A stretch of DNA of 64,000 nt from a candidate division FCPU426 bacterium (lineage in GTDB: Bacteria > Oederibacteriota > Muellerivitia > Muellerivitales > Muellerivitaceae). Under the pieces are notes generated by a model, which saw only the letters and a list, made by a program, of their open reading frames with translations, did not search any database and was not told the DNA's origin. The position numbers were made by a program, and so were the translations under genes. The number at the start of each line of letters is the position of its first letter. Positions within the stretch are counted from its first letter, which is position 1. The DNA lies in assembly GCA_963771075.1 (NCBI GenBank), contig CAVYSE010000005.1, forward strand, positions 64,001 through 128,000. Reading direction: 5' to 3'. This document shows, piece after piece, positions 9,557 to 34,310 of this stretch.

Positions 9557-10372
9557 ATGAATAAAATCCCACAAACCGTATTGAAAGCATTCAATGTTGA
9601 AGCGGAAACGCAATTGTTGGATGGCGGCCAAGGTGAATCTTTTCGGGCGGGTAACATTGTCCTGAAACCAGCCCTCCTCGAAGCCGAATGGCTTGCCGAA
9701 AACCTTAAAGACTTAAAAGAAGATGGTTTCAGAATCCCAAGGCCCGTTTCAACAAGGGATGGGAAGTGGATCTTTGATCGATGGTGCGCCTGGACTTTTA
9801 TTTATGGCCGGCATGATCCCACGCGTGTGCAAGAGATAGTCCAAACCGCGAAGGTGTTTAATGCTTCGCTCAAGGGGTTTTCCAGGCCGGATTTTCTGGA
9901 TCAACGGCAGGATCCTTGGGCCATAGCGGATCGAATGGCATGGGGTGAGATTCCAATAGCTTGCCACCCCTCCCTTATGGTACCGATCAATAGAATTTCC
10001 GAACTTTTAAAACCGATTGATCTGCCGAGCCAGCTTATCCACTGTGATCTTATCGGCAACGTTCTTTTTGAGGATGAACATGCACCTGGAGTCATTGATT
10101 TTTCCCTTAACTGGCGGCCTCCCGATTATTCCCTCGCCATTATTGTGGTTGACGCAATGAACTGGAATGGCGCTGATGAATCAGTTCTGCGATATATTGG
10201 TGATGTTCCTGATTTTTTTCAGCTTTTGATCAGAGCCCAAATATTCCGCCTGGCTGTTTTGGAAGGATTTCGTCAAAGAGGGGCGGACATATCCCGAGGA
10301 ATAAGAGGAGAAGAAAGAACCGTTGAACTGATATGCGGAAAGCTCAAAGATAAATACCACAAAACTGCTTAA
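9557..10372 (+). CDS. Aminoglycoside-phosphotransferase-like kinase (cassette gene)
   Basis: LDGGQG, HCDLIGNVLF, VIDFS motifs. Confidence 0.8.
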   Translation: MNKIPQTVLKAFNVEAETQLLDGGQGESFRAGNIVLKPALLEAEWLAENLKDLKEDGFRIPRPVSTRDGKWIFDRWCAWTFIYGRHDPTRVQEIVQTAKVFNASLKGFSRPDFLDQRQDPWAIADRMAWGEIPIACHPSLMVPINRISELLKPIDLPSQLIHCDLIGNVLFEDEHAPGVIDFSLNWRPPDYSLAIIVVDAMNWNGADESVLRYIGDVPDFFQLLIRAQIFRLAVLEGFRQRGADISRGIRGEERTVELICGKLKDKYHKTA

Positions 10373-10378
10373 GTAGGT

Positions 10379-10406
10379 TGTCCGCGACGGGGACCCATCG
10401 CGAACA
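10379..10406 (+). repeat. 28-bp palindromic cassette site
   Basis: TGTCCGCGACGGGGACCCATCGCGAACA, 6 nt after a stop codon. Confidence 0.9.
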
Positions 10407-10453
10407 TCTAATGTGGGTTGGAGTTATACGATGGGCTATCGTATAATTAAGCT

Positions 10454-10669
10454 ATGAAAGTCACCGCGCTATTACCCGATAAACTAGTACGGGAAGTCCA
10501 AGGTTTTGCCAAAGGCAAAAACCTCACGGAATCGCTCGTCAAAGCATTATCGGAATGGAACCAACAACAAAAAATCAGGGATTTGAATCAACTGGTTCTT
10601 GAGCATCCCCTGGGTTTCTCCAAAACTTTTTCCGCCCCTCGCGTTCGAGCCAAAAACAGAAAATCATGA
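10454..10669 (+). CDS. vapB: VapB-like antitoxin (DUF2191-like)
   Basis: Short RHH-like ORF overlapping the PIN gene (ATGA); palindrome TTATACGAT..ATCGTATAA upstream. Confidence 0.75.
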   Translation: MKVTALLPDKLVREVQGFAKGKNLTESLVKALSEWNQQQKIRDLNQLVLEHPLGFSKTFSAPRVRAKNRKS

Positions 10670-11040
10670 TCCTTGTCGATACCTCCATTTGGGTGGAGTT
10701 TCTCAAGGGGCATCAACCCTATTTTGATCAAATGAAACAATTGTTGGAGGAACGCCAAGTCCTTGCGGTCGAACCTGTTTTCGGCGAATTGCTCCAAGGA
10801 GCTAAAGATGACCGTGAAAGGCGGATTCTTCAGGGATTTTGGGAAAATCTTCCCAAAAATAAAATACAGGATGCCTGGGTGAAGGCGGGGGAATTATCCT
10901 CCCGAAAAAAATGGAGTGATCGCGGAATCGGATTGATCGACGTGGTCTTGATTATTTCCTCTCGGGATTCAAACGCAAAGATTTGGTCTTTAGATAAGAA
11001 GTTAAATAGCGTATTGCACAAGAATGAGATTTTTGAATAG
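10666..11040 (+). CDS. vapC: VapC PIN-domain toxin
   Basis: MILVDTSIW, ELLQGA, IGLID, WSLDK. Confidence 0.9.
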   Translation: MILVDTSIWVEFLKGHQPYFDQMKQLLEERQVLAVEPVFGELLQGAKDDRERRILQGFWENLPKNKIQDAWVKAGELSSRKKWSDRGIGLIDVVLIISSRDSNAKIWSLDKKLNSVLHKNEIFE

Positions 11041-11047
11041 CTTTGCT

Positions 11048-11075
11048 TGTTTACGATGAGGTCCCATCGTGGACA
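11048..11075 (+). repeat. 28-bp palindromic cassette site
   Basis: TGTTTACGATGAGGTCCCATCGTGGACA. Confidence 0.85.
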
Positions 11076-11140
11076 TGAAAAATCATGGATAATGGGCTTG
11101 GTCTCCTTGTTCCACTATCCCAGTGAAAGGTAGTAAATAA

Positions 11141-12754
11141 ATGAAATACCAATGGTTGTTCGCGTTCTTGCTTGCAGTTCCATCCTGGGCCCTTCCCGCC
11201 GACAAGGCATTTGAATTATTTCCTCCGGCCAATAACGCCGCGCCGGAGACCTTTACCAAGGCGGTCCAACCCTTCCCGGCGGAGGGCAAGCCCTGGAAGT
11301 TCGCTCATGGCGCCAAGGTCCAGGTCAAGGTGGATGCCGCGCAGGTTCTGCAAAAGATCACCCCCTATCAATTCGGGTCCAATCTCGCCTGTTGGGATAA
11401 CAAACAATTCGTGAACGACCCGGATTGCCAGGAAAAGGTCAGGCAGGCGGGCATCCGGTTCTGGCGCTGGCCGGGAGGCAGTACCTCGGACAACTACCAT
11501 TGGGATGGCAAGTATGGGGACCATACCAAGGACCATGACGGGGGGAACCCGCCGAATATGAACGAACCCTGGGCCGCCTCCACCGACGATTTCATTTCCT
11601 TCTGCCAGAAGACGAATTCGGAAGCCATCGTGACGGTCAACTACGGCGCAGCCCGTTATGAGAATGTCCGGTACGCGGCCGACCTGGCCGCCCGGTGGGT
11701 GCATTATTTCAACTTCGAGAAGAATTTCAGGGTGCGTTATTGGGAGATTGGCAACGAGAATTTCGGGTCCTGGGAAGAGGGGAACCAGCTGGCAGGCAAA
11801 TCGCAATTGACCGGCGATGTCTATGGCAAGGATTTCCAGGTGATCGCCTCGGCCATGCGAAAAGTGGACCCGGACATCTTTATCGGGGCGGTGGCCGTGG
11901 ACAAGGACAGCGGGGATGATTGGAATGGTTACCACTGGTGGATGAGGGGCCTTCTGCCCCAGCTTCAACGGAAAGCCGATTTCCTGATCTTCCATGAATA
12001 TTTCATATGGCCCTTCGATGGCGCGAAAAACTATACCAATCCCAGCAACCAGGTTCTTCTGTCGAACCTTCACGAGATCCCCGACGCCAAGGCCGCTTTC
12101 GATGACATGGAAGACAAATACGCGCCGACCGAGAAGGGTTTGCCCATCGCCGCGACCGAGTTCAACATGATCAACGGCGATCCCCCCCAGACGATCCAAC
12201 TGTTGAACGGGTTATTTGCGGCGGAAGCCCTGGGGGAGATGATCAAGACGGGTTTCAAAAATTCCAACATCTGGGACCTGAAGAACGGCCTGGATGAGAA
12301 GCTCAAGGGGGACCATGGCTTGCTGGCCTATGGGGACTCCCGGATTCCGGCGGGTACACCCCGGCCGACCTATTACACTTACGCCCTTTATTCCCGGGCT
12401 TTCGGGGACACCCTGGTTTCGGCGGAGAGCGCGGACCCAACGGTAAAGATCTATGCCAGCCGTTTTTCGGGCGGGGAACTGGGTTTGGTCATCGTGAACG
12501 AGAATGACCAGAACCGCACGGCCGTTTTTGACCTGGCGGGGTTCAAGCCCCAGGGAAAACTGATGGGATGGGTCATGACCGGCAAGAATCTTAATGATTT
12601 TCAGGTTTCGTGGAACGGCGAAATGGGACCGGCGGGAGGGGGAGGGCCCTATCCCATCCAGACGATCCCGCCATACCGGGCCGTCTTCAAGACCAATCAA
12701 CCCCTCCAGCTACCCTTGCAAGCCAGGTCGGTTACGGGCCTTATCCTTTATTAG
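11141..12754 (+). CDS. Secreted clan GH-A glycoside hydrolase (arabinofuranosidase/GH51-like)
   Basis: Signal peptide, RWPGGSTSDNYHW, YWEIGNE, TEFN, C-terminal beta-sandwich. Confidence 0.8.
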   Translation: MKYQWLFAFLLAVPSWALPADKAFELFPPANNAAPETFTKAVQPFPAEGKPWKFAHGAKVQVKVDAAQVLQKITPYQFGSNLACWDNKQFVNDPDCQEKVRQAGIRFWRWPGGSTSDNYHWDGKYGDHTKDHDGGNPPNMNEPWAASTDDFISFCQKTNSEAIVTVNYGAARYENVRYAADLAARWVHYFNFEKNFRVRYWEIGNENFGSWEEGNQLAGKSQLTGDVYGKDFQVIASAMRKVDPDIFIGAVAVDKDSGDDWNGYHWWMRGLLPQLQRKADFLIFHEYFIWPFDGAKNYTNPSNQVLLSNLHEIPDAKAAFDDMEDKYAPTEKGLPIAATEFNMINGDPPQTIQLLNGLFAAEALGEMIKTGFKNSNIWDLKNGLDEKLKGDHGLLAYGDSRIPAGTPRPTYYTYALYSRAFGDTLVSAESADPTVKIYASRFSGGELGLVIVNENDQNRTAVFDLAGFKPQGKLMGWVMTGKNLNDFQVSWNGEMGPAGGGGPYPIQTIPPYRAVFKTNQPLQLPLQARSVTGLILY

Positions 12755-12828
12755 GTCGATAAGGTTGGCTTTCGACCGCAGCCGATAGATTAAACAGGTC
12801 TTGGACTGCCAATAAACCTTTTGTTACT

Positions 12829-12856
12829 TGTCCACGACGGGGACCCGTCGCGGACA
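12829..12856 (+). repeat. 28-bp palindromic cassette site
   Basis: TGTCCACGACGGGGACCCGTCGCGGACA. Confidence 0.92.
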
Positions 12857-12978
12857 GGTAATTCGAACCATGCCAACCCCCTTTTCAGGTCAAAGATTGA
12901 AGAGGTTTTAGATCCCATTGCAGGATTATCGATATAATGATATCATGATATCGTTACCATTCATTTGGGAGGAGACCC

Positions 12979-13230
12979 ATGGCCCAACTCATCGTTAGAA
13001 ATTTAGATGACAGCGTGAAGATGAAGCTGAGCCAAAGGGCCCGGAAGAATGGGCACAGCACGGAGGAAGAAGTACGGGATATCTTGAGAAACGCGGTAGG
13101 AAAAGATAGGGGCCTCGCCCCCATGCCATTGGGCGCCAGGTTTAAGGCGCGGTTTAGCAAGATAGGCCTAACTAGGGAAATCCCCGAATTGCGTGGACAG
13201 CAGGCCCAACCCGCCACCCTTGTCCCATGA
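12979..13230 (+). CDS. FitA/StbC-like RHH antitoxin
   Basis: MAQLIVRNLDD..RARKNGHSTEEEVRDIL. Confidence 0.85.
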   Translation: MAQLIVRNLDDSVKMKLSQRARKNGHSTEEEVRDILRNAVGKDRGLAPMPLGARFKARFSKIGLTREIPELRGQQAQPATLVP

Positions 13231-13646
13231 TCCTGCTCGATACAAATGTCCTTTCCGCATTGATGCTTCGGGAACCGGACCCTACGGTCGTTTCATGGCT
13301 GGATCGCCAGTCCGTTGAATCGGTTTGGACAACGACGATCACGGTATTTGAAATTCGGTTTGGCCTCGAGAACCTGGCGGGTGGGAAAAGACGGCGTCAG
13401 CTGGAAGAAATTTTTAACCAAACCCTGGAAATTGATTTGGAAGGCCGAGTCCTGCCATTTGACCTGGCCGCGGCCCGGGCGTCTGCCTCGATCGCGGCCC
13501 AACAAAGAAAAAGTGGGCGTCCGGTTGAGATACGAGATGTCCAGATTGCCGGGATCACTTTGGCCAGCAAGGCTACATTAGCCACCCGCAATATCCGGCA
13601 TTTCCAAGGGCTTGGTATCCATCTGATCGATCCCTGGAAAGCCTAG
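13227..13646 (+). CDS. vapC: FitB/VapC PIN toxin
   Basis: MILLDTNVLS, DVQIAG, LATRNIRHF, IDPW. Confidence 0.92.
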   Translation: MILLDTNVLSALMLREPDPTVVSWLDRQSVESVWTTTITVFEIRFGLENLAGGKRRRQLEEIFNQTLEIDLEGRVLPFDLAAARASASIAAQQRKSGRPVEIRDVQIAGITLASKATLATRNIRHFQGLGIHLIDPWKA

Positions 13647-13648
13647 CC

Positions 13649-13676
13649 TGTCCACGATGGGGACCCGGATTGGTCA
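13649..13676 (+). repeat. 28-bp cassette site, variant right arm
   Basis: TGTCCACGATGGGGACCCGGATTGGTCA, 2 nt after a stop codon. Confidence 0.85.
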
Positions 13677-13694
13677 AAGAAAGAAGGTTAGACA

Positions 13695-13973
13695 ATGGTA
13701 AATAAAAAGACGGTTGTGATGAAGATAAACATCAAGGCGTTCGGATTGGCTTGTGGTTTGTTGTGGGGTCTGGGAGTTTTAGGCCTGACTTGGTGGGTCA
13801 TCCTTTTCGAGGGGCCAACCCACGACCTGATGTTGCTTGGACACATCTACCGGGGTTATGACATCAGCCCCGCCGGAAGTTTGATTGGGACTGCTTATGG
13901 CCTGGTGGATGGAGGGGTGGGCGGCGTCGTTTTCGCCTGGCTTTATAACCTCCTCTGCGTCAAGTTCAAATGA
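13695..13973 (+). CDS. Small 2-TM membrane protein (family often annotated as holin)
   Basis: KAFGLACGLLWG..YRGY..GSLIG..FAWLYN. Confidence 0.7.
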   Translation: MVNKKTVVMKINIKAFGLACGLLWGLGVLGLTWWVILFEGPTHDLMLLGHIYRGYDISPAGSLIGTAYGLVDGGVGGVVFAWLYNLLCVKFK

Positions 13974-13993
13974 TCAGGTGTTGAGGAATAGCT

Positions 13994-14021
13994 TGTCCAC
14001 GATGGGGACCCTTCGTGGACA
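13994..14021 (+). repeat. 28-bp cassette site (intron target)
   Basis: TGTCCACGATGGGGACCCTTCGTGGACA followed by TC and intron copy 1. Confidence 0.92.
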
Positions 14022-14023
14022 TC

Positions 14024-16000
14024 GTGCCAGCGAAGGTTTGTAGAGCCAGCAGGTGAGGGAGTAGGCCGAAGAGGGCCAGCCCAAATCCTGACCAGGTAAT
14101 CGCCAGAGAGCCTGGAAGTCAGCCCCCGGCGTAGGACCGAGAGGTTCTGCCCGAAACGGGGTCATAAACCTCATTCAGTGAGGGAACAATCTAGCAGTCC
14201 GCAACATCAAGTGAATCCTGCCGCGTCGTGAATGGGACACCGAAAGGTGCAAGAGGATGCCGAGCCGCGTGTCTACCGGCGAAGGCCACGATCCCGCTGA
14301 AGAATCTGGAGCAAGCGGGGCAAGTCCTCCGGCGTATGGGGAACGGAATGCTGGAAAGGCTTTGCAAGCAACCTGGGAGATCCTACCCGCCAAAAGACTT
14401 GCCGCTATAAGGCTAAAACCGAAAAGGGGCAAGGGCGGGAGGAAGTCGGAGGGGGTCACAATACCTGTGAAGGGTGGACAACAAAACCACCTGGAGGGAA
14501 GGACCCCTGCTTCAACCAAGCAACCTTCAAAAGGGAGGCGCTGGAGCATGCCCCAAAGGGCCAACAACTCCGAAGACAAGGCGCGAACCCTTCAAAGGGC
14601 GCTATACCGAGCGGCCAAGAGGAGCCCAAGCCGGAGATTTCATGTACTGCATGACAGGATGACCCGATGGGATGTCCTGACAGCGGCATGGAAACAGGTG
14701 AAGGCTAATAAAGGCCAAGGAGGAGTGGACGGGGAAACGCTGGAATGGATCGAAGAGAAGGTGGGAATTATTCCATTCCTGAAGGGCATCCAGGAAGAAC
14801 TCAAAGCTGGGAAGTATCTGCCTAAACCTGTGAGACGAGTGGAAATACCCAAGCCTGATGGAAGCAAGAGACCGTTGGGAATCCCGGTAATTCGGGATCG
14901 GGTAGTTCAAGCGGCTTGCCGGAAGGTGGTGGAACCCATCTTTGAGGCGGACTTTCTGGAAGGCTCGTTTGGATTTCGGCCAAAACGCGGAGCCCAGCAG
15001 GCCCACCGGGAGATCAAGAAGTGGATCAATGGCGGGTACAGATGGGTGGTGGATGGAGATATTCGGAAGTATTTCGATTCCATCGACCACGACAAACTGA
15101 TGGTGCTGGTGCGCCAGAGGATCAGTGACCGGAAGGTTTTGAAACTGATCCGAGGGTGGCTGAAGGCGGGTGTGTTTGAGGAAGGAAGGCTTACGCCGAC
15201 TCTCCGAGGGACACCGCAAGGCGGGGTGATCTCACCGCTGTTATCCAATGTTTACCTTCACTTGCTGGACAAGGTTTGGAATAAGAGGCACAGGAAACTG
15301 GGTAGGCTGGTGCGCTACGCCGACGATTTTGTGGTGTTGTGCGGAAGCCAAGCCCATGCGGAAAAGAGCCTGGAAGTCATCAAGGAATTGATGGGACGAC
15401 TAGGGCTTGAACTGCACCCCGAAAAGACACGGCTGGTGGAAATGGGGCCTGGGAAGGAAGGGTTTGACTTCCTTGGGTTCCACTTTCGAGTAGGTATGCC
15501 GGTGGTAGGATTGGGTAAGACCTGTTGCCTGAGCTGGCCGAGCCGGAAGGCCATGAAGAAAATCGCCGAGAAAGTGAAGCAGATGACGGCGGGCCGAGAG
15601 CGGCTCTTATCTCCAATGGAGGATGTAGCGAAGGCTTTGAACCCGGTGTTAAGGGGGTGGGCCAACTATTTCCGAATTGGGGACAGCCAGCCATACTTTT
15701 CCAAGCTTCAATTTTACGTACTCGAAAGGCTGACTTTGTTTCGGAGGCATAAGTACGCCTGGGAAGGACGAACATGGTCGATCGAGGAAGTGAAACGCCT
15801 TGGTTTGAACTGGATTCCAGCTTTTGCCTTGAATGCTGCCGGTTGAAAGGTTGTCGGAAAGCCGTATGATCGAAAAGGTCACGTACGGTTTGATGAGGGG
15901 GCGCTGGAAACGTGGTGATGAGAGCCGGACTGAGGCCCAATCCGAAAGGGTTGGATTCGCCACCGTACTCTAAGGCATACGCGCCAGCGCTCTACTCTGC
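14024..16000 (+). mobile_element. Group II intron, copy 1 (~1977 bp)
   Basis: GTGCC 5' end, RT ORF, domain V AAGCCGTATGATCGAAAAGGTCACGTACGGTTT, long domain VI with bulged A; boundaries from 3-copy comparison (+/-2 nt). Confidence 0.93.
14548..15846 (+). CDS. ltrA: Group II intron reverse transcriptase/maturase, no endonuclease domain
   Basis: GVDG, RPLGIP, PQGGVISPLL, RYADD, FDFLGF, RGWANYF; RBS before ATG 14548. Confidence 0.95.
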   Translation: MPQRANNSEDKARTLQRALYRAAKRSPSRRFHVLHDRMTRWDVLTAAWKQVKANKGQGGVDGETLEWIEEKVGIIPFLKGIQEELKAGKYLPKPVRRVEIPKPDGSKRPLGIPVIRDRVVQAACRKVVEPIFEADFLEGSFGFRPKRGAQQAHREIKKWINGGYRWVVDGDIRKYFDSIDHDKLMVLVRQRISDRKVLKLIRGWLKAGVFEEGRLTPTLRGTPQGGVISPLLSNVYLHLLDKVWNKRHRKLGRLVRYADDFVVLCGSQAHAEKSLEVIKELMGRLGLELHPEKTRLVEMGPGKEGFDFLGFHFRVGMPVVGLGKTCCLSWPSRKAMKKIAEKVKQMTAGRERLLSPMEDVAKALNPVLRGWANYFRIGDSQPYFSKLQFYVLERLTLFRRHKYAWEGRTWSIEEVKRLGLNWIPAFALNAAG

Positions 16001-16036
16001 ACGAAAAGTCACGCATAAGAGGCAGTTTATGATTAG

Positions 16037-16456
16037 TTGGCCAATTTGAAAAAGATTAAACCCTGGGTGAAATTTTGGTTATTCGCAGGAACTTTATTAT
16101 TTGGTTACGTGTTTTGGGGGTTGGTTGAAGAAGTTGCTTTCAATAATCGATTTTTTATCCCCACTTTGAGTTCTCGGATGGTTCGGTTAACCGGGTTCAT
16201 TCATTTTCGCATAATCGACTTTTGGTGTTCCAATTGTATCTACGTTTTAGACAGTTCTGGCTCCCAAATTAAAGTGATCGTTCCCCAAAAAGTCCAAGAC
16301 GAAGTTCGGAGAACAAATTGGGGAGATTTAAAAAAGAACGGGAAAACAGTATTTGTTGACTTGAATGCAATATCTGGGGGTCTCGGGGATTATTATGTTT
16401 GTACGAGAGTCAATTCGATTAATGTCGTTGATGGAGTTGTTTCAGTAAGCAAATAA
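16037..16456 (+). CDS. Hypothetical protein with N-terminal TM (cassette gene)
   Basis: AT-rich ORF ending 14 nt before a site. Confidence 0.6.
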   Translation: MANLKKIKPWVKFWLFAGTLLFGYVFWGLVEEVAFNNRFFIPTLSSRMVRLTGFIHFRIIDFWCSNCIYVLDSSGSQIKVIVPQKVQDEVRRTNWGDLKKNGKTVFVDLNAISGGLGDYYVCTRVNSINVVDGVVSVSK

Positions 16457-16470
16457 TTCACATGAAGAGC

Positions 16471-16498
16471 TGTCCACGACGGGGACCCGTCGTGGACG
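16471..16498 (+). repeat. 28-bp palindromic cassette site
   Basis: TGTCCACGACGGGGACCCGTCGTGGACG. Confidence 0.93.
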
Positions 16499-16550
16499 AT
16501 GTTTTTAAGTTTATTACCCAAATTATAAGTTCTTTCAGATTGGATGTTTT

Positions 16551-17936
16551 ATGAAGAACCGATGGCAATGGGCGGTGACGATTGGGGCTGTCCCACTCTA
16601 TTACCTCCTTTCGCTTATTCCTCTTTATCATTACCCTAATTTTACTAATTCCCATGTAGGCAATCCGCCTATTGGATTGTTCGCACTTGGCCCAACACCG
16701 ATCTATAGTGGTTTTGTATTTGTAGAAATCATTTCCATCCTGGTCAATCCTTTAAAGCGATGGAGAACACAAGGGATGGCAGGCAGGGAAAAAATACATC
16801 GAGTTCAGCTTATTTTTATGTTTCTTGCAGCCATGTTTCAGGGATGGGGCACGGGTGAACTTATTAAAACTTTTGGCCCCGATTACACGGTGGAAATATT
16901 TGGAACGACCGGACTAGCCGCTCAAATTATTCTGTGTTCCTGTTTGGTTAACGGCGTCTTGATCTTCTACTTGATCGCTACAAATGTGTCCCTGTATGGT
17001 TTGTTCAATGGTTTTATTCTTTTCCTTTTCGTACGGCCCCTGGTGTCGAAAACTCTGGGTCTCATCGATGGAATCCAAACGGACTTACGCTTGCCCGTTG
17101 ACCTTCACTTTTCTAATTTTGATGAAAAAATGAATTTTATATATTTCTTTTTCGTCCTTGTAGGCGTGGGGTTTGTTCTGTACCAAAAACGAAAGAAAAT
17201 ATTAGAACTTATTTATCATTATGTGCTTCGTAACCCATTGGTTGGCTATCAAACAAAAGAAAAATTGTATCAAGTGAAAACTTCGCCCGTTCCTCAAACG
17301 TTAACGGGTGGTTTGGGTGTTTTGGTGCTGATTCTACAAATGGTTTTGTACCAACATGGCGCTTTTTCGGATAACGGGACTTTGCGAAATGTGCTATGGG
17401 TCGGGGCGGATATGATTGATCTGGGTGTGACATCTTTTTTACTTTGGCTTTTATTTACCAACACCTACTGGGTCGATCATCATCTGGAAGGACGGGCGTC
17501 TTGGCTTCCTGAACGGGACAAATTGAAGCCTTATTTTATTTTTTGGCTTGTGATGTCCGCTTTCGCAGTATTAATAAATGAGTCACCATTGTTTTTCCAT
17601 TTTTCATTAACTATTGAAAAATTGAGCCGTATTTTTCTTGAGCCTATTTTCATCCTGACGACGGTCATTTTAGGGATAGAAATTTACGAAAAATGGCAAT
17701 TCGAGCAAAGGTCGATTCAAAAAGTATGCCTGGCCGAAATGGATAATGTGGAATTGGTCCAGCTTTGGGTGGCCCAACTTGAAGAGGCGAATCTTTCCTT
17801 TCATGTGGAGGGCCTTCGTTATAGGCAACTTACGCAATTCTTTGCGCCTTATTTGAAAATGAGGCTGTTTGTGGATGAAAGTCAGGCCCAGGACGCGGTA
17901 AGCATCATTCGTTTAGAAGAAGTTAAGCAAATATAA
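16551..17936 (+). CDS. Divergent SecY-like membrane protein with DUF2007-like C-terminal domain (cassette gene)
   Basis: GLFALGPTPIYSG..GMAGREKI..AMFQG resembles SecY TM2-3; about 10 TMs. Confidence 0.6.
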   Translation: MKNRWQWAVTIGAVPLYYLLSLIPLYHYPNFTNSHVGNPPIGLFALGPTPIYSGFVFVEIISILVNPLKRWRTQGMAGREKIHRVQLIFMFLAAMFQGWGTGELIKTFGPDYTVEIFGTTGLAAQIILCSCLVNGVLIFYLIATNVSLYGLFNGFILFLFVRPLVSKTLGLIDGIQTDLRLPVDLHFSNFDEKMNFIYFFFVLVGVGFVLYQKRKKILELIYHYVLRNPLVGYQTKEKLYQVKTSPVPQTLTGGLGVLVLILQMVLYQHGAFSDNGTLRNVLWVGADMIDLGVTSFLLWLLFTNTYWVDHHLEGRASWLPERDKLKPYFIFWLVMSAFAVLINESPLFFHFSLTIEKLSRIFLEPIFILTTVILGIEIYEKWQFEQRSIQKVCLAEMDNVELVQLWVAQLEEANLSFHVEGLRYRQLTQFFAPYLKMRLFVDESQAQDAVSIIRLEEVKQI

Positions 17937-17949
17937 TGTGGGAGTTCGC

Positions 17950-17977
17950 TGTCCACGATGGGGACCCGTCGTGGACA
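17950..17977 (+). repeat. 28-bp palindromic cassette site
   Basis: TGTCCACGATGGGGACCCGTCGTGGACA. Confidence 0.93.
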
Positions 17978-18057
17978 AGCTTTAGTCACAAGGCCAAGAT
18001 GAAAATTCAAAATGGGTGATTATTGAAAACTGAGAAGGTGGAAAGAAGCTTAACCCA

Positions 18058-18558
18058 ATGGAAAATTCTTACAATTTAGAAAAAACTATTTGGTCAGAAG
18101 CCGACTTTGAAAAAATGTGTTGGCATGATGTTCATGTCCATGGAATTTCGTTTGGGCCAATGTCGGAAGAAAACGGAACGGCCGATTTTTTATTTGATAT
18201 TGATTACCTCTTTGAATGGATAAAACCCATTGCGCCTGAAATTTTCTATAGCTTTTGGATAGCCCCATGCACTCTCGTTTTTGAAAACGCGTATGACTTT
18301 AAAATGCAAATAGAAGACAAAATAGGTTTTGCTTTCGGTCCCTTTGTAATAGAAGATTTTTCAATGGCTGAGAACCTGGAACGGGATGGCGTTCATTACG
18401 GTTACCGTTGGAAAATCAAACTTAGAACCGGGTGGATAGAATTGAAATCCTACGGATTAAAACAATACGTTCGCCAAAAACCGAGAGTGGGTGGCCAATG
18501 GTTGTTATTTGAAGAACGGGCCGGTGTGAATTATCAAAAAAAATATTCCGGGTCGTAA
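18058..18558 (+). CDS. Conserved hypothetical protein (cassette gene)
   Basis: AT-rich ORF, MCWHDVHVHG, DIDYLFEW; stop 4 nt before a site. Confidence 0.7.
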   Translation: MENSYNLEKTIWSEADFEKMCWHDVHVHGISFGPMSEENGTADFLFDIDYLFEWIKPIAPEIFYSFWIAPCTLVFENAYDFKMQIEDKIGFAFGPFVIEDFSMAENLERDGVHYGYRWKIKLRTGWIELKSYGLKQYVRQKPRVGGQWLLFEERAGVNYQKKYSGS

Positions 18559-18562
18559 GGGT

Positions 18563-18590
18563 TGTCCACGATGGGGACCCATCGTGGACA
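18563..18590 (+). repeat. 28-bp cassette site (perfect 13-2-13 palindrome; intron target)
   Basis: TGTCCACGATGGGGACCCATCGTGGACA. Confidence 0.95.
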
Positions 18591-18592
18591 TC

Positions 18593-20569
18593 GTGCCAGC
18601 GAAGGTTTGTAGAGCCAGCAGGTGAGGGAGTAGGCCGAAGAGGGCCAGCCCAAATCCTGACCAGGTAATCGCCAGAGAGCCTGGAAGTCAGCCCCCGGCG
18701 TAGGACCGAGAGGTTCTGCCCGAAACGGGGTCATAAACCTCATTCAGTGAGGGAACAATCTAGCAGTCCGCAACATCAAGTGAATCCTGCCGCGTCGTGA
18801 ATGGGACACCGAAAGGTGCAAGAGGATGCCGAGCCGCGTGTCTACCGGCGAAGGCCACGATCCCGCTGAAGAATCTGGAGCAAGCGGGGCAAGTCCTCCG
18901 GCGTATGGGGAACGGAATGCTGGAAAGGCTTTGCAAGCAACCTGGGAGATCCTACCCGCCAAAAGACTTGCCGCTATAAGGCTAAAACCGAAAAGGGGCA
19001 AGGGCGGGAGGAAGTCGGAGGGGGTCACAATACCTGTGAAGGGTGGACAACAAAACCACCTGGAGGGAAGGACCCCTGCTTCAACCAAGCAACCTTCAAA
19101 AGGGAGGCGCTGGAGCATGCCCCAAAGGGCCAACAACTCCGAAGACAAGGCGCGAACCCTTCAAAGGGCGCTATACCGAGCGGCCAAGAGGAGCCCAAGC
19201 CGGAGATTTCATGTACTGCATGACAGGATGACCCGATGGGATGTCCTGACAGCGGCATGGAAACAGGTGAAGGCTAATAAAGGCCAAGGAGGAGTGGACG
19301 GGGAAACGCTGGAATGGATCGAAGAGAAGGTGGGAATTATTCCATTCCTGAAGGGCATCCAGGAAGAACTCAAAGCTGGGAAGTATCTGCCTAAACCTGT
19401 GAGACGAGTGGAAATACCCAAGCCTGATGGAAGCAAGAGACCGTTGGGAATCCCGGTAATTCGGGATCGGGTAGTTCAAGCGGCTTGCCGGAAGGTGGTG
19501 GAACCCATCTTTGAGGCGGACTTTCTGGAAGGCTCGTTTGGATTTCGGCCAAAACGCGGAGCCCAGCAGGCCCACCGGGAGATCAAGAAGTGGATCAATG
19601 GCGGGTACAGATGGGTGGTGGATGGAGATATTCGGAAGTATTTCGATTCCATCGACCACGACAAACTGATGGTGCTGGTGCGCCAGAGGATCAGTGACCG
19701 GAAGGTTTTGAAACTGATCCGAGGGTGGCTGAAGGCGGGTGTGTTTGAGGAAGGAAGGCTTACGCCGACTCTCCGAGGGACACCGCAAGGCGGGGTGATC
19801 TCACCGCTGTTATCCAATGTTTACCTTCACTTGCTGGACAAGGTTTGGAATAAGAGGCACAGGAAACTGGGTAGGCTGGTGCGCTACGCCGACGATTTTG
19901 TGGTGTTGTGCGGAAGCCAAGCCCATGCGGAAAAGAGCCTGGAAGTCATCAAGGAATTGATGGGACGACTAGGGCTTGAACTGCACCCCGAAAAGACACG
20001 GCTGGTGGAAATGGGGCCTGGGAAGGAAGGGTTTGACTTCCTTGGGTTCCACTTTCGAGTAGGTATGCCGGTGGTAGGATTGGGTAAGACCTGTTGCCTG
20101 AGCTGGCCGAGCCGGAAGGCCATGAAGAAAATCGCCGAGAAAGTGAAGCAGATGACGGCGGGCCGAGAGCGGCTCTTATCTCCAATGGAGGATGTAGCGA
20201 AGGCTTTGAACCCGGTGTTAAGGGGGTGGGCCAACTATTTCCGAATTGGGGACAGCCAGCCATACTTTTCCAAGCTTCAATTTTACGTACTCGAAAGGCT
20301 GACTTTGTTTCGGAGGCATAAGTACGCCTGGGAAGGACGAACATGGTCGATCGAGGAAGTGAAACGCCTTGGTTTGAACTGGATTCCAGCTTTTGCCTTG
20401 AATGCTGCCGGTTGAAAGGTTGTCGGAAAGCCGTATGATCGAAAAGGTCACGTACGGTTTGATGAGGGGGCGCTGGAAACGTGGTGATGAGAGCCGGACT
20501 GAGGCCCAATCCGAAAGGGTTGGATTCGCCACCGTACTCTAAGGCATACGCGCCAGCGCTCTACTCTGC
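18593..20569 (+). mobile_element. Group II intron, copy 2
   Basis: Same sequence and ORF set as copy 1, offset 4569. Confidence 0.93.
19117..20415 (+). CDS. ltrA: Group II intron RT/maturase
   Basis: Translation identical to copy 1. Confidence 0.95.
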   Translation: MPQRANNSEDKARTLQRALYRAAKRSPSRRFHVLHDRMTRWDVLTAAWKQVKANKGQGGVDGETLEWIEEKVGIIPFLKGIQEELKAGKYLPKPVRRVEIPKPDGSKRPLGIPVIRDRVVQAACRKVVEPIFEADFLEGSFGFRPKRGAQQAHREIKKWINGGYRWVVDGDIRKYFDSIDHDKLMVLVRQRISDRKVLKLIRGWLKAGVFEEGRLTPTLRGTPQGGVISPLLSNVYLHLLDKVWNKRHRKLGRLVRYADDFVVLCGSQAHAEKSLEVIKELMGRLGLELHPEKTRLVEMGPGKEGFDFLGFHFRVGMPVVGLGKTCCLSWPSRKAMKKIAEKVKQMTAGRERLLSPMEDVAKALNPVLRGWANYFRIGDSQPYFSKLQFYVLERLTLFRRHKYAWEGRTWSIEEVKRLGLNWIPAFALNAAG

Positions 20570-20610
20570 ATGAAAAGTACCAATGGAGCGTCTGATAGGG
20601 TGAGGTATTA

Positions 20611-21588
20611 ATGGGATTTTTTGAAGAATTCAAAAAACTGCTGTGGCTCTACAACCCCCTTAAAAAATCTGGAAGGCCTGGGGAGATTAAGAGCCGAGGC
20701 ATCAACGGAGCTGTTTTTTGCCCCATTTACAACCATTGGATTTCCAACCTTGAGTGTTTAGAAACGAGCGGGGAGCGCGGCTCCTACGACGAAATTGACA
20801 AACCCGATTTAAATCATTTGGAAACCGGCTACAACGATATTCATAACGCGACTAAACGTAGCGGGCATAAATTCCCCCAAGACATTAAAAAAGTGGTCAT
20901 TACCTGTGAGTATTGTGAAGCCTACTGCCTCGGCCAGGAAAATGGACCTCTAGTAGTCCCTCCCATTGACAGTATCGATCGAAAGAAATTGTTGTTCGAT
21001 TTATATGACGAAAGTAAAAGATATTCAAAAGACACCATTGACCCAACGGAATTGGAGAAGATTAAAAAGGCAGCCATGGAACTGAGCGAAAAAGCCGGAA
21101 AATACTTGGCCGAACATCTGAACCTTGAAAAAGAAATACGCGAAATAACAGTCGAATTCGAAGCGCAAGAAACTGGAAAAACGGGTTTTTGGATCATTCT
21201 TTTTGGCCTCGTTTTTGCTGTCGCCGGATTCGGGAATCTTTGGAATGTCAACTGGTTCGCTCATAAAGCCTTTCAGGGGAAAGGGGCTGTTTTGTCGGTA
21301 GAGAAAAAAGAAGCGACCGACAGTGGCAAATGGATTGCCCGGGTCCGATATACCCCTCGGAATTACCCAGAAGTCGTCGCTGAGCTTGAAGTTGAAAAAC
21401 CTTATGAAACAAATCAATTGGTAGAATTTCTTTATGACCCACAAAACCCCAATAAGCTACGGCCCGCCAGCTGGTCAAAAAAAAGTCCGCTGACCAATTT
21501 CTTTTTGGCGATAATTGGCATTGTTGTCATCGGGTTCGGCTGGAGCAAATTAAAAGTTGCCAGGCCTTTTTATCCGAAAAGGGGTTAA
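20611..21588 (+). CDS. Hypothetical protein: Cys-rich N-terminus, DUF3592-like membrane C-terminus (cassette gene)
   Basis: GAGG RBS; TM-..YDPQNP..-TM pattern. Confidence 0.65.
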   Translation: MGFFEEFKKLLWLYNPLKKSGRPGEIKSRGINGAVFCPIYNHWISNLECLETSGERGSYDEIDKPDLNHLETGYNDIHNATKRSGHKFPQDIKKVVITCEYCEAYCLGQENGPLVVPPIDSIDRKKLLFDLYDESKRYSKDTIDPTELEKIKKAAMELSEKAGKYLAEHLNLEKEIREITVEFEAQETGKTGFWIILFGLVFAVAGFGNLWNVNWFAHKAFQGKGAVLSVEKKEATDSGKWIARVRYTPRNYPEVVAELEVEKPYETNQLVEFLYDPQNPNKLRPASWSKKSPLTNFFLAIIGIVVIGFGWSKLKVARPFYPKRG

Positions 21589-21612
21589 AAGGTTGCTATG
21601 AGGCCATTCCTC

Positions 21613-21802
21613 AAGTTCAATTAAGCCCACCCGTCAGCCTTTTGGTTTCGCGGATTCACGCTGCTATTCGTGCTCGAGGCACAAGTTAAAAATTCGATAA
21701 TCCAGTAGGGAAGCCACCAGCTGTCCATCGTGCCTTACGGCACCACCAAATTCCGTGGTCATTCCAAAGGGATCGAATCACAAAACCGAGGCTGAAACCT
21801 CT
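21613..21802 (-). ncRNA. Putative bridge/seek RNA of the IS110 element
   Basis: Two parallel GTGCC-loop-GCAC-GA-7mer modules 60 nt apart; the 7-mers TGGACAG and ATAGCAG match target and donor junction. Confidence 0.75.
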
Positions 21803-22879
21803 TTAGCGCATGGGCCGATACACTTCCTTCCGAACCAACATCGTCCAAAGGTGAATCAAAAGCTTGTGCGCCATTGCCACAATCGCCTTGTTGACGTGTC
21901 CCGTATTACGGACCAGTCGACGAAAAACACGGTAGGCCTGGGTATCCTTTTGGATCCATGACCAGGCCGCTTCAACCAAGGTCGCTCTCAAAGTGCCTTT
22001 TCCGGCCTTCTGTAAATGGCCTTCCTTCCGGGTTTCACCGCTTTGCCTGATCCTAGGGGCCAACCCCACGTAAGCCGCCACTTGTTTGGCGTTTTCAAAG
22101 CGTTCCGGCTGGTAAATCTCCGTTAATACTTGCAGGGTCGTCACTTCGCCCACTCCTGGGTGGGTTCTCAGGATCTTGGCCTTTTTCTCGTAGGCCTTCT
22201 CCTTCATCATGACCCTCAAACGTATGTTCACGTCCTTGAGCTGCCTATCAAAGTAAAAAAGATCTTCCAATAGGCGATCCAAGGTGAACCTCAGGGCAGG
22301 TGGCAGTTCCATTTCCCGTAATATCCCAATGGCTTCGTGGGTCCAGTAATCCAACCCTCTGGGAGTTTTGAGCCCATATTGAAGGAAGAAGCTCTTGATC
22401 CTTTGTTTGGCCTTGCGTTTCTGCTCGACCATCGCGTTCCTCAAACGAACCACCTGCCGGTCAGCTTCTTCCTGGAGGGTTGGGATCGCCACCGCCTTCA
22501 GCAATTCTTTCTCCGCATACTCCGCCAGTTTGCTACAGTCCAAACGGTCGGATTTTGTTTCAAACTGCGACACGCGAGGAGTCTTGTGCGGGGCGATGAC
22601 ATCCAATGGGTATCCCTCCTCCCGAAGGCGGCGGGCCAGGCCAAAACCGGTAGGGCCTGCCTCGTAGACGACCTTTTTCAACCCCACCCGATAAGGCGCC
22701 AGGACCTTCACCACCGCCTCCCAGTCCGCTGTCAGGGACTTTGTTCCGACTTCCTTTCCGTTAATCCTGATTGCCATATAAATACTTCGTTTGTGGACAT
22801 CCAATCCCACAAACACAGCGTCCCGCTTGGATACCTCCTTGCCTCGGTATCCTTTTTTGCTAATCTGTTTCATGGCCAT
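21803..22879 (-). CDS. IS110 DEDD recombinase/transposase
   Basis: FVGLDVHK, YEAGPTG, KSDRLD, HPGVG, GLAP..QSG. Confidence 0.95.
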   Translation of the reverse strand: MAMKQISKKGYRGKEVSKRDAVFVGLDVHKRSIYMAIRINGKEVGTKSLTADWEAVVKVLAPYRVGLKKVVYEAGPTGFGLARRLREEGYPLDVIAPHKTPRVSQFETKSDRLDCSKLAEYAEKELLKAVAIPTLQEEADRQVVRLRNAMVEQKRKAKQRIKSFFLQYGLKTPRGLDYWTHEAIGILREMELPPALRFTLDRLLEDLFYFDRQLKDVNIRLRVMMKEKAYEKKAKILRTHPGVGEVTTLQVLTEIYQPERFENAKQVAAYVGLAPRIRQSGETRKEGHLQKAGKGTLRATLVEAAWSWIQKDTQAYRVFRRLVRNTGHVNKAIVAMAHKLLIHLWTMLVRKEVYRPMR

Positions 22880-22948
22880 TCCTCCTTGTGAGTTGCCTGC
22901 TCACCGGGACTAGTTTAATCCCGGCGGAGGAATGGCCTTCATGTTACC

Positions 22949-22976
22949 TGTCCACGACGGGGACCCGTCGTGGACA
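22949..22976 (+). repeat. 28-bp cassette site (IS110 target)
   Basis: TGTCCACGACGGGGACCCGTCGTGGACA, perfect palindrome. Confidence 0.95.
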
Positions 22977-23059
22977 CCTAATTCTGACGTGGCTTTGGAT
23001 AAACCTCTTTGCTTTAGTCATGGGTGATAAGGACTGAATTTTAGGACGAAAGGAAAACC

Positions 23060-23644
23060 ATGAAAACCGTTCTTGTTATTTTAGCATTGATCGTTTTGGT
23101 TTTTTTCTTTTGGAAGTTCAAATCCCGGCGTCTTTTTGACCCGGAAGCCCTCATGCCGGGTTACGCACAGAAGGCCATCTCGACCGCCAAGGAAAAGTAT
23201 GGCCTCACTTTGGATCTGGACGAAAAAAACTTGAAAGTTCTTGAGATGAAAATTATGAGGCCGCTAAGTGAAGAGTTTAAGAAAAAAGCCTTATCGGACG
23301 AAGAACTTGCGAACAATTGCATTCTTTGGGGGGCTTATCTGGGGGAAATGTTAAAGAAGGCTTCGCCCTACTGGTCTCAGGCCCATTGGAGATTAAATGA
23401 TTCAGAAAAAGGCCAACAAACAATTAATCCAAACCAGATTGGTTTGGCGGGAAAGGATTTTGTGGTTTATCCCGGTGCTTGGGTTCAAAAACATATCGAA
23501 GACCCTATAAACGATAATTTCGTGGGAAAGTATGAATTAGCTTATCAACTGCCAAACACGGATCAGAATAAAAAGGGCACTCAGGGTCAGCTGATAGATA
23601 AAGATGGGAACCCTATCAAAATGCGATATATGCCTGAAAAGTAA
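23060..23644 (+). CDS. Hypothetical protein with N-terminal TM (DUF3806-like; cassette gene)
   Basis: LDLDEKNL..WGAYLGE..P..WVQK. Confidence 0.65.
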   Translation: MKTVLVILALIVLVFFFWKFKSRRLFDPEALMPGYAQKAISTAKEKYGLTLDLDEKNLKVLEMKIMRPLSEEFKKKALSDEELANNCILWGAYLGEMLKKASPYWSQAHWRLNDSEKGQQTINPNQIGLAGKDFVVYPGAWVQKHIEDPINDNFVGKYELAYQLPNTDQNKKGTQGQLIDKDGNPIKMRYMPEK

Positions 23645-23662
23645 TAGATTGTTTGGTGAAGT

Positions 23663-23690
23663 TGTCCACGACGGGGACCCATCGTGGACG
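23663..23690 (+). repeat. 28-bp cassette site (intron target)
   Basis: TGTCCACGACGGGGACCCATCGTGGACG followed by TC and intron copy 3. Confidence 0.93.
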
Positions 23691-23692
23691 TC

Positions 23693-25669
23693 GTGCCAGC
23701 GAAGGTTTGTAGAGCCAGCAGGTGAGGGAGTAGGCCGAAGAGGGCCAGCCCAAATCCTGACCAGGTAATCGCCAGAGAGCCTGGAAGTCAGCCCCCGGCG
23801 TAGGACCGAGAGGTTCTGCCCGAAACGGGGTCATAAACCTCATTCAGTGAGGGAACAATCTAGCAGTCCGCAACATCAAGTGAATCCTGCCGCGTCGTGA
23901 ATGGGACACCGAAAGGTGCAAGAGGATGCCGAGCCGCGTGTCTACCGGCGAAGGCCACGATCCCGCTGAAGAATCTGGAGCAAGCGGGGCAAGTCCTCCG
24001 GCGTATGGGGAACGGAATGCTGGAAAGGCTTTGCAAGCAACCTGGGAGATCCTACCCGCCAAAAGACTTGCCGCTATAAGGCTAAAACCGAAAAGGGGCA
24101 AGGGCGGGAGGAAGTCGGAGGGGGTCACAATACCTGTGAAGGGTGGACAACAAAACCACCTGGAGGGAAGGACCCCTGCTTCAACCAAGCAACCTTCAAA
24201 AGGGAGGCGCTGGAGCATGCCCCAAAGGGCCAACAACTCCGAAGACAAGGCGCGAACCCTTCAAAGGGCGCTATACCGAGCGGCCAAGAGGAGCCCAAGC
24301 CGGAGATTTCATGTACTGCATGACAGGATGACCCGATGGGATGTCCTGACAGCGGCATGGAAACAGGTGAAGGCTAATAAAGGCCAAGGAGGAGTGGACG
24401 GGGAAACGCTGGAATGGATCGAAGAGAAGGTGGGAATTATTCCATTCCTGAAGGGCATCCAGGAAGAACTCAAAGCTGGGAAGTATCTGCCTAAACCTGT
24501 GAGACGAGTGGAAATACCCAAGCCTGATGGAAGCAAGAGACCGTTGGGAATCCCGGTAATTCGGGATCGGGTAGTTCAAGCGGCTTGCCGGAAGGTGGTG
24601 GAACCCATCTTTGAGGCGGACTTTCTGGAAGGCTCGTTTGGATTTCGGCCAAAACGCGGAGCCCAGCAGGCCCACCGGGAGATCAAGAAGTGGATCAATG
24701 GCGGGTACAGATGGGTGGTGGATGGAGATATTCGGAAGTATTTCGATTCCATCGACCACGACAAACTGATGGTGCTGGTGCGCCAGAGGATCAGTGACCG
24801 GAAGGTTTTGAAACTGATCCGAGGGTGGCTGAAGGCGGGTGTGTTTGAGGAAGGAAGGCTTACGCCGACTCTCCGAGGGACACCGCAAGGCGGGGTGATC
24901 TCACCGCTGTTATCCAATGTTTACCTTCACTTGCTGGACAAGGTTTGGAATAAGAGGCACAGGAAACTGGGTAGGCTGGTGCGCTACGCCGACGATTTTG
25001 TGGTGTTGTGCGGAAGCCAAGCCCATGCGGAAAAGAGCCTGGAAGTCATCAAGGAATTGATGGGACGACTAGGGCTTGAACTGCACCCCGAAAAGACACG
25101 GCTGGTGGAAATGGGGCCTGGGAAGGAAGGGTTTGACTTCCTTGGGTTCCACTTTCGAGTAGGTATGCCGGTGGTAGGATTGGGTAAGACCTGTTGCCTG
25201 AGCTGGCCGAGCCGGAAGGCCATGAAGAAAATCGCCGAGAAAGTGAAGCAGATGACGGCGGGCCGAGAGCGGCTCTTATCTCCAATGGAGGATGTAGCGA
25301 AGGCTTTGAACCCGGTGTTAAGGGGGTGGGCCAACTATTTCCGAATTGGGGACAGCCAGCCATACTTTTCCAAGCTTCAATTTTACGTACTCGAAAGGCT
25401 GACTTTGTTTCGGAGGCATAAGTACGCCTGGGAAGGACGAACATGGTCGATCGAGGAAGTGAAACGCCTTGGTTTGAACTGGATTCCAGCTTTTGCCTTG
25501 AATGCTGCCGGTTGAAAGGTTGTCGGAAAGCCGTATGATCGAAAAGGTCACGTACGGTTTGATGAGGGGGCGCTGGAAACGTGGTGATGAGAGCCGGACT
25601 GAGGCCCAATCCGAAAGGGTTGGATTCGCCACCGTACTCTAAGGCATACGCGCCAGCGCTCTACTCTGC
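23693..25669 (+). mobile_element. Group II intron, copy 3
   Basis: Same sequence and ORF set as copy 1, offset 9669. Confidence 0.93.
24217..25515 (+). CDS. ltrA: Group II intron RT/maturase
   Basis: Translation identical to copy 1. Confidence 0.95.
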   Translation: MPQRANNSEDKARTLQRALYRAAKRSPSRRFHVLHDRMTRWDVLTAAWKQVKANKGQGGVDGETLEWIEEKVGIIPFLKGIQEELKAGKYLPKPVRRVEIPKPDGSKRPLGIPVIRDRVVQAACRKVVEPIFEADFLEGSFGFRPKRGAQQAHREIKKWINGGYRWVVDGDIRKYFDSIDHDKLMVLVRQRISDRKVLKLIRGWLKAGVFEEGRLTPTLRGTPQGGVISPLLSNVYLHLLDKVWNKRHRKLGRLVRYADDFVVLCGSQAHAEKSLEVIKELMGRLGLELHPEKTRLVEMGPGKEGFDFLGFHFRVGMPVVGLGKTCCLSWPSRKAMKKIAEKVKQMTAGRERLLSPMEDVAKALNPVLRGWANYFRIGDSQPYFSKLQFYVLERLTLFRRHKYAWEGRTWSIEEVKRLGLNWIPAFALNAAG

Positions 25670-25695
25670 ACCTTTTTTAGTGTTAAGGAGGTTTA

Positions 25696-26313
25696 ATGGT
25701 AGCCCAATTTCCCGATATTACCTTTGAAGGTCCGCTCATATCAGATCAAAATTTTCTAAACGCTCTCCCTGAGGATTTAAAATCAATTCTCAAAATAAAA
25801 AATGGTTTTATCGCTTTTGCCGGTGGATTTCACATGAGAGGGATTTGCGAAGAACCTAGTTGGCATTCGTGAGAACTGTTTTGGACCGGTAAGCATTCCT
25901 TTTCGAAATTGTATTCTTCTATTCAAAAAGACGATGTACCTTTTGGACAAGATTGCTTGGGTGATCAGTTTATTTTAAGAAAGAACCAAGTATTACGTCT
26001 TAGGGGTGAATCGGGAGACATTGTAGATATGAAAATGGATTTATTAACTTTCTTGGATGAAGCTGAATCAAATCCTTTTGATTTATTAGAACTAGCTCCT
26101 TTGAAGCGAATTCAAAACGAAGGAAAAAAACTGGAGCCCGGCCAATTAATTAATGTGTTTCCTCCCTTTATTACCGCAGAGAGCCGTAAAGGCGTTTCAT
26201 TGAAGCCAATACCAACCGTCGAAAGAATCTTGTTTCTTTCCGATCTTGCTAAACAAATTTCCAATATTTCTGACGGTACACAAGTTAAATTCAATATAAG
26301 CTCTAAGGGGTAG
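25696..26313 (+). pseudogene. SMI1/KNR4 (SUKH)-like immunity protein with in-frame TGA at 25870-25872
   Basis: AAGGAGG RBS then ATG 25696; LPEDL..KNGF..GG, FGQDCLGDQF; same frame as ORF 25909. Confidence 0.65.
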
Positions 26314-26330
26314 TTTGAGGGCTTAGCGAT

Positions 26331-26358
26331 TGTCCACGATGGGGACCCATCGTGAACA
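26331..26358 (+). repeat. 28-bp palindromic cassette site
   Basis: TGTCCACGATGGGGACCCATCGTGAACA. Confidence 0.93.
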
Positions 26359-34285: not shown

Positions 34286-34310
34286 GGGCAAATGTGCAAT
34301 TAATTGAATG

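Follow-up and report, generated by a model that had tools for sequence, protein, structure and literature searches.

An En-less IIB-type group II intron at the end of a 28-bp palindrome, with exon-binding-site pairing as the probable means of target choice

In the genome of a candidate division FCPU426 bacterium, copies of a group II intron sit at the end of a 28-bp palindrome, and sequence comparison makes it highly probable that this IIB-type intron, which lacks an En domain, retrohomes there by pairing of its exon-binding sites (EBS), with about 94 sites in the genome. The window analysed is a stretch of 64,000 nt of this source genome (G000; 4.39 Mb, 96.7% complete), taken from contig CAVYSE010000005.1, and positions below are window positions. 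Comparison of the window with itself revealed three 2-kb repeats of 99.9% identity, the intron part of which is identical in all three. Each copy lies right behind a palindrome (13994, 18563 and 23663) and, as the original prediction, made from this stretch alone, had described, is directly followed by A. Rfam models RF02003 (domain I) and RF00029 (domain V/VI) match every window copy. As also predicted, domain V is full length with an AGC triad, domain VI is long, and the encoded reverse transcriptase (RT) has no En domain. Domain VI measures about 100 nt and carries its bulged A at -7; the RT has RVT_1 and GIIM domains and a YADD motif.

The source genome contains 10 full copies (99.4-100% identity), one derivative without an open reading frame (ORF) on contig C2 and one 5' fragment on contig C26, which bears out the recent spread that had been proposed. 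Two further 3'-end remnants lie within a duplicated stretch away from any palindrome. Each of the 12 intron 5' ends directly abuts a palindrome arm, always at one and the same motif position. With 6 or fewer mismatches allowed, and with three duplicate sites in the fold-back of C26 removed before sites and arms were counted, the genome has 94 palindrome sites. As the 4.39-Mb genome has 94 such sites, a shared motif position for 12 of 12 ends exceeds chance, and the specific use of the palindrome, also predicted, was confirmed by listing the copies. The site's asymmetric centre shows that eight ends use the forward arm and four the reverse arm; the insertion in gene direction that had been claimed thus holds within the window only. 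The derivatives that lack the ORF measure about 800 nt, keep domains I, V and VI intact and occupy the same target (G000:C2:57260-58050, minus strand; L214, L216, L235, L236 and L257), again at the arm end, and have likely moved in trans. At G000:C8:88546 (minus strand), a palindrome is followed by about 30 nt resembling the 5' end of a 69% sub-lineage and then by unrelated DNA; this probably marks the place of an intron that has since been lost.

The first intron base directly adjoins the palindrome arm (TGGACA/A), and the intron extends for 1979 nt from UCGUG to GC. The original prediction had described an element of about 1977 bp that starts with GUGCC behind a 2-nt TC gap and requires the palindrome plus TC/A, and we regard this boundary as virtually excluded. 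GUGCC matches GUGYG at four of five positions. However, TC follows only two of 177 empty arms but all 11 scored occupied arms (A follows 103 of the 177 empty arms), and a 93%-identical variant in genome G067, located at the same palindrome position, begins GCGTG, with GC in place of TC, and ends AC (L226/L208, L227/L207). Therefore, TC represents intron nucleotides 1-2. The 5' ends of relatives align as G-Y-G-Y-G-C-C, so that UCGUG is a GUGYG-type start with two changed bases, and EBS1 pairing reaches the last base of the arm; both results also argue against a start at GUGCC. We also considered that extra bases might have been inserted ahead of GUGCC at the 5' end, of the kind in PMC4424553 (the papers cited here by PMC number were available as extracts), but dropped this because UCGUG is in register with GYGYG.

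EBS1, EBS2 and EBS3 are complementary to target positions -1 to -7, -9 to -13 and +1, respectively, and both intron-binding sites, IBS1 and IBS2, fall within the 3' arm of the palindrome stem. Six distinct EBS2 sequences each match their own exon. The EBS2/IBS2 pair is AUGGG/CCCRT in the query, AAGGG/CCCTT in the 93% variant (2/2 sites), ACACC/GGTGT in the 85% variant, whose palindrome has no inner stem, GAGAG/CTCTC in the 73% variant, GUGUC/GACAC in the 69% variant (2/2 sites, non-palindromic) and AAUGUGCC/GGCACATT in the 58% variant. In a permutation over 40 unique EBS sets, the own-exon score of EBS1 was 4.46 against 3.13 ± 0.15 for shuffled exons (maximum 3.54 of 300), and that of EBS2 was 4.10 against 3.12 ± 0.13 (maximum 3.49 of 300). 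Of 24 introns, 18 could be scored for EBS3-IBS3; 17 of these have a Watson-Crick pair, and all four base pairs are represented. The three elements were thus mapped and covary with their targets, in agreement with the IIB-like RNA that had been predicted. Occupancy in the source genome shows the same pattern, with introns at 11 of 55 full-target arms and at 0 of 133 other arms, although the latter figure is partly circular because the full-target pattern was derived from occupied sites. The C4 copy was not scored, as a contig end cuts its site. Arms with good EBS1 and EBS2 matches are occupied in 11 of 83 cases before A and in 0 of 43 before other bases. Site 10379, followed by TC-T and empty as had been noted, is empty as expected, because its arm ends CGAACA and T follows. 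For EBS2a-IBS2a, a pair of IIB1/IIB2 introns (PMC8643678), inspection by eye gave no constant partner, and position -14 is A or C depending on orientation.

The palindrome has the 28-bp consensus TGTCCACGAY GGGGACCC RTCGTGGACA, and 11 of the 12 co-oriented palindromes between 8466 and 26358 lie 2-74 nt past the stop codon of an accessory gene. With up to 3 mismatches, it was found in 27/30 genomes of the family, 1/1 of the order and 0/67 of the rest of the phylum. Its positions 1-18 are well conserved and positions 19-23 are variable. Sites with a common upstream flank agree to about position 18-19, and sites with a common downstream flank share right arms, degenerate ones included. Since flank-sharing sites agree by half, modules appear to have been joined inside the site. 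The cassette site that had been proposed is thus plausible from its sequence, with the junction within the site, but there is no integron integrase (TIGR02249) match above the cut-off in the source genome.

It could also be that the hairpin itself is read, as by class IIC introns, or helps through fork stalling or single-strand exposure, with EBS pairing setting the exact base. We consider this unlikely. The hairpins of occupied arms tend to be slightly better than those of empty arms with the full target (p = 0.058 overall; p = 0.45 and 0.16 within each orientation), and the palindrome is common to three intron lineages. Nearly half of g6/U1/U2 introns lie right after terminators (Miura 2022, PMC8919778), and Sonbol and Siam speculate on a role of the hairpin for UHB.I2 (PMC7923331). 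Against hairpin reading, IBS1 and IBS2 are located inside the stem. Because 12 of the last 13 bases of the 3' arm pair with, or sit between, EBS elements, structural reading of the hairpin is unlikely. In the genomic data, close relatives (58-85% RT identity) occupy non-hairpin sites, and five members of the same clade are at hairpin-less sites; targets of this clade without a hairpin or with half a hairpin are L209, L210, L211, L212, L215 and L257:813. At L216, L235 and L236, ORF-less copies stand after a right arm while the left arm is 2 kb off behind another intron, which may have been inserted before or after them. Terminator-adjacent Firmicutes relatives have an A-rich EBS2 that matches the terminator arm and T-tract. 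These results speak against the independent evolution of hairpin-directed insertion that the original prediction had put forward.

The apparent joining of modules within the site would also fit a spread without RNA, in which shuffling at the palindrome moves DNA modules and the intron copies are carried along within them. This is very improbable, because the DNA 3' of the intron differs from the second base onward in all 10 full copies and three of the 10 are on the opposite palindrome arm. An assembly artefact deserves almost no weight as an explanation of the copies. It is true that contig C26 holds one intron 5' fragment within a noisy fold-back duplication centred in that fragment (G000:C26:133640-143721), which is itself probably an artefact of long-read assembly. 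However, every full copy is bordered by different DNA on either side, and related copies occupy the same site in other genomes. In three DNA runs from three studies, intron contigs are several times deeper than flank contigs, although contig depth does not equal copy number and the best of the three runs may not be independent; a single contig from these runs covers the intron completely together with the flank of another genomic copy.

Several points weigh against retrohoming by EBS pairing alone. The permutation ignores kinship between introns, and of the 46 5' regions that entered it, 43 of which were parsed, 13 were hand-picked and only 33 came from the 165 other loci tried. Sub-lineages differ in their EBS2 register by about two bases, only four of five EBS2 positions pair in the 69% palindrome variants, and one 98% copy (L206) is followed by G instead of A. 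The trend towards better hairpins at occupied arms also belongs here. The forward arm is favoured (7/15 vs 4/40, Fisher p = 0.005). This bias is not accounted for by EBS pairing and may come from strand position or from bases -14/-15. The sense strand of the intron is G-rich in 10 of 12 cases, a count confounded with array direction. Contigs of RNA run X15 cover intron parts only and contain no exon junction.

Retrohoming by EBS pairing would proceed as follows. The precursor would be transcribed from promoters of the array and, assisted by the RT, would splice to a lariat branched at the bulged A. The lariat would then reverse splice into another palindrome on whichever strand is exposed there, and a primer from the replication fork would serve for copying. 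A palindromic target gives every site one target per strand, and insertion at the edge keeps the 28 bp whole.

The intron also has unusual ends. The consensus ends GUGYG...AY are absent (UCGUG...GC), and the bulged A at -7 is kept. Both ends were found in 23 of 24 introns, of which eight have U/G as first and penultimate base, 15 have G/A, and none is discordant. On the tree, as judged by eye, there have been at least three switches between the two states, a count that could be blurred by exchange of RNA and ORF between co-resident introns. A non-Watson-Crick contact between the first and penultimate intron bases is known (PMC4238363), and U1 with a penultimate G is likely, from this covariation, to be one compensated form of that contact. 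Against this, start-codon-targeting relatives that start with UUGCG seem to keep a penultimate A (L050, L074). Therefore, the U/G coupling appears to be local, not lineage-wide.

The RT is outside class C and appears to fall among RTs labelled 'Unclassified' by Miura 2022. Class definitions were taken from PMC3552965, PMC4244168 and PMC4424553. Quick trees were used throughout and their deep nodes are weak; one tree omitted half of the related loci and later trees most of them, and the references cover none of g2, g4, g5 and g6. The seven class C references (one Miura-labelled, one annotated IIC, all seven with a CGC-type domain V) form a clade at 99.7 from which the query is excluded. Nesting of the query in class C was rejected (p <= 1.6e-6), although a sister position was not (p = 0.24). 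The AGC triad of the query contrasts with CGC in 7/7 class C references, and the query has EBS2 and an EBS1 of 6-7 bp, unlike the class C criterion (EBS2 absent, EBS1 of 3-4 bp). The absence of En fits class C but is common to classes D, E, F and G, and hence is not diagnostic. The phylogeny therefore agrees with the prediction that the intron is not class IIC. Grouping with class G (g1) references Rh.js.I1 and Sr.me.I2 was rejected (p-AU 0.0025), and grouping with class E was not. The query is outside the clade of three F references and has YADD, not the FADD of g2, but a joint clade with F was not rejected (p = 0.155). It joins a family clade of eight (98), then L001, a 58% relative from the phylum, and a Leptospira RT. 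With this RT and two 'Unclassified'-labelled references it forms a group at 93 by the Shimodaira-Hasegawa-like approximate likelihood ratio test (SH-aLRT), while two other such references fall elsewhere; the label of the Leptospira RT was borrowed from the chromosomal copy of a sister species. The best plasmid RT matches that could be looked up are mostly 'Unclassified' in Miura Table S3, and two weaker ones are F. Scans of metagenomes and GTDB gave no RT above 58% identity.

The palindrome is shared with other introns. An F-like FADD intron (39-41% identity) is inserted after palindrome base 11 in G067, G054 and G070 (9 loci), and the loop of its EBS1 can pair with the left arm. The source genome carries a 3'-truncated relic of it (G000:C3:168530-169946, minus strand; FADD, 84% identical to the G067 copy), which lies in the palindrome centre, unlike the base-11 position of its relatives. 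A third lineage (46-47% identity) is inserted after base 19 in G053 (2 loci), and its EBS1 matches. Three intron lineages thus converge on one palindrome at three positions.

Other relatives have other targets. A large sister group (many of L003-L080 and L126-L205) is inserted right after ATG or GTG, and a -10-like box often precedes this codon by a few bases. Its EBS1 is CAUG, and its EBS2 often matches the box region (L057, L032, L142). Exons end with ATG or GTG in 23 of the 40 unique EBS sets, of which at least two are of terminator type by chance. This group looks like it targets leaderless gene starts, and our literature search found no report of such targeting by introns of this kind. 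Firmicutes relatives (L018-L020, L025, L045, L046, L048, L082, L088) are inserted right after intrinsic terminators of varied sequence, and it is in these that the A-rich EBS2 matches the terminator 3' arm and T-tract.

A wider reading of all these data is tentative, and as a whole we hold it to be rather less probable than its failure. The palindrome might be the recombination site of a non-integron cassette system confined to the family, and three lineages might have independently re-tuned their guide loops to three positions in it, the present intron entering at the edge, keeping the site functional and riding with the next cassette. The wider lineage might reach cassette sites, terminators and start codons with their -10 boxes by nothing more than re-tuning EBS1 and EBS2, and terminator targeting might thus have arisen for a second time, in this case without hairpin reading.

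Table 1. Window coordinates of the intron copies, their internal elements and the palindromes
Feature	Position	Strand	Remarks
Group II intron, copy 1	14022..16000	+	1979 nt; 5' UCGUG, 3' GC
Group II intron, copy 2	18591..20569	+	identical; from window self-comparison
Group II intron, copy 3	23691..25669	+	identical; from window self-comparison
Occupied 28-bp palindrome	13994..14021	+	IBS2 (one U-T mismatch here) and IBS1 in last 13 nt
Occupied 28-bp palindrome	18563..18590	+	
Occupied 28-bp palindrome	23663..23690	+	final G forms a wobble with EBS1
EBS2, AUGGG	14232..14236	+	putative, from covariation; pairs with CCCRT at -13..-9
EBS1, UGUCUAC, hairpin loop in domain I	14270..14276	+	putative, from covariation; pairs with last 6-7 nt of arm
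EBS3, U	14337	+	pairs with A at +1 after the intron
RT/maturase ORF	14548..15846	+	432 aa, YADD, En-less; also 19117-20415 and 24217-25515
Domain V	15859..15891	+	AGC triad at 15860-15862
Domain VI	15895..15997	+	long; bulged A at 15994
Empty palindrome	10379..10406	+	arm end CGAACA (mismatches EBS1), then T
Co-oriented palindrome array	8466..26358	+	12 sites
Starts of the array sites	8466, 10379, 11048, 12829, 13649, 13994, 16471, 17950, 18563, 22949, 23663, 26331		

Several candidates for the owner of the palindrome were considered. Tyrosine recombinases have eight matches in the genome, none adjoining an array. Y1 (HUH) transposases have 20 matches, and the 17 whose flanks were inspected have their own ends and no palindrome. 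Among relatives, BLAST to their own ORFs found no recombinase adjoining the arrays in six loci of 16-19 kb; at L245, a three-gene recombinase cluster is about 6 kb from palindrome sites. An IS110-family transposase within the array (21803-22879, minus strand) was rejected as a further targeter, since its two copies are in one duplicated 1360-bp block and its target is unreadable. The second copy of this block, on C9, again includes the left arm of site 22949 but continues into another right arm. The 11+6+11 layout is reminiscent of dif/Xer sites. Read from its sequence, the palindrome has no R''/R' motifs of attC sites as given in PMC7923331.

Other observations concern the array and its surroundings. 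The motif GGATAATGG occurs 5-20 nt behind many palindromes, for example at the empty sites at 11048 and the relatives of 31991. A variant left half with its own hairpin replaces the usual arm at 34258, and on C11 and C26. PIN-domain (VapC-like) genes with small upstream ORFs are found at 10400-11040 and 12980-13646, each pair between two palindromes, and read as toxin-antitoxin modules of the kind found in integron arrays. Genes for Y1 (HUH) transposases, about 317 aa long, are present at 31044-31361, where the copy is truncated, and at 16 further loci of the source genome; the terminal inverted repeats of these elements are short and begin with GGGGTCAG or GGGGCCAG. An IS4-family element is present in two inverted copies of 99.9% identity (34310-35728 and 40624-42043), and an S-adenosylmethionine (SAM) riboswitch (RF00162; 3866-3997) precedes a threonine-synthase-like gene. 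Among relatives of the intron, the 93% copy at L208 is split by an IS110-like element, a 69%-type copy at L229 contains the 3' end of a second intron, and the 73% variant at L210 has a long insertion near its 5' end.

These introns provide a natural set of compensatory changes, in three exon-binding pairs and in the first/penultimate contact, within a lineage of which no member had been studied in the papers found by our literature search. They indicate that an intron may lie beside a hairpin without reading it in the IIC manner, and they offer a testable account of the terminator association of unclassified introns (Miura 2022, PMC8919778). Three lineages on a family-specific palindrome suggest a long-lived, tolerated landing site and point to an unexplained cassette system. 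The literature search, which covered few subscription papers, found no report of the intron, the palindrome or the convergence. The surprise is limited, because the basic strategy of homing into a multicopy repeat is known.

The closest parallels to that strategy are RmInt1 and RmInt2 of Sinorhizobium meliloti (class D; PMC4615759), which are likewise En-less, IIB-like and homing by EBS pairing into a multicopy element. RmInt2 homes into inverted repeats of an insertion sequence (IS), which also gives one target per strand. The query differs in that its RT belongs to another lineage (35% identity to an RmInt1-like reference) and its target is not an IS end but a stand-alone 28-bp palindrome between accessory genes, used by three lineages. 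UHB.I2 (IIB1/CL1; PMC7923331) is also a non-IIC intron right after a cassette hairpin in gene direction, and its ends (5'-UUGCG..GU-3') share the first U and penultimate G. However, it is a single copy with a CL1 RT at a true attC, and the extract of that paper does not show repeated homing or covariation, whereas the query has at least 12 insertions in one genome at a site that is not attC. Class IIC and IIC-attC introns (PMC7923331, PMC4424553) are similarly En-less and lie beside inverted repeats in intergenic or cassette DNA. The query is unlike them in its RT outside class C, its AGC triad, the presence of EBS2, the 6-7 bp EBS1 and the IBS within the stem, and, while IIC-attC introns are opposite to the cassette genes, 8 of its 12 insertions are in the forward direction of the site. 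The nearest labelled RTs (46-56% identity) carry the label of the 'Unclassified' U1/U2 proteins, which are also En-less and of 400-500 aa; the extract of Miura 2022 (PMC8919778) notes terminator proximity, without an EBS mechanism or a palindrome-targeting branch. The Avi.groEL/EcKTE56.groEL IIB1 lineage (PMC12584367) is another non-C lineage specialised on a recurring genomic context, but it targets start and stop codons of housekeeping genes and has a large domain I insertion. In summary, to judge from these extracts, EBS-paired homing into a multicopy repeat (RmInt1, RmInt2) and a IIB intron after attC (UHB.I2) were already known, and the lineage, the coupled changes of first and penultimate base and the three-way convergence are new.

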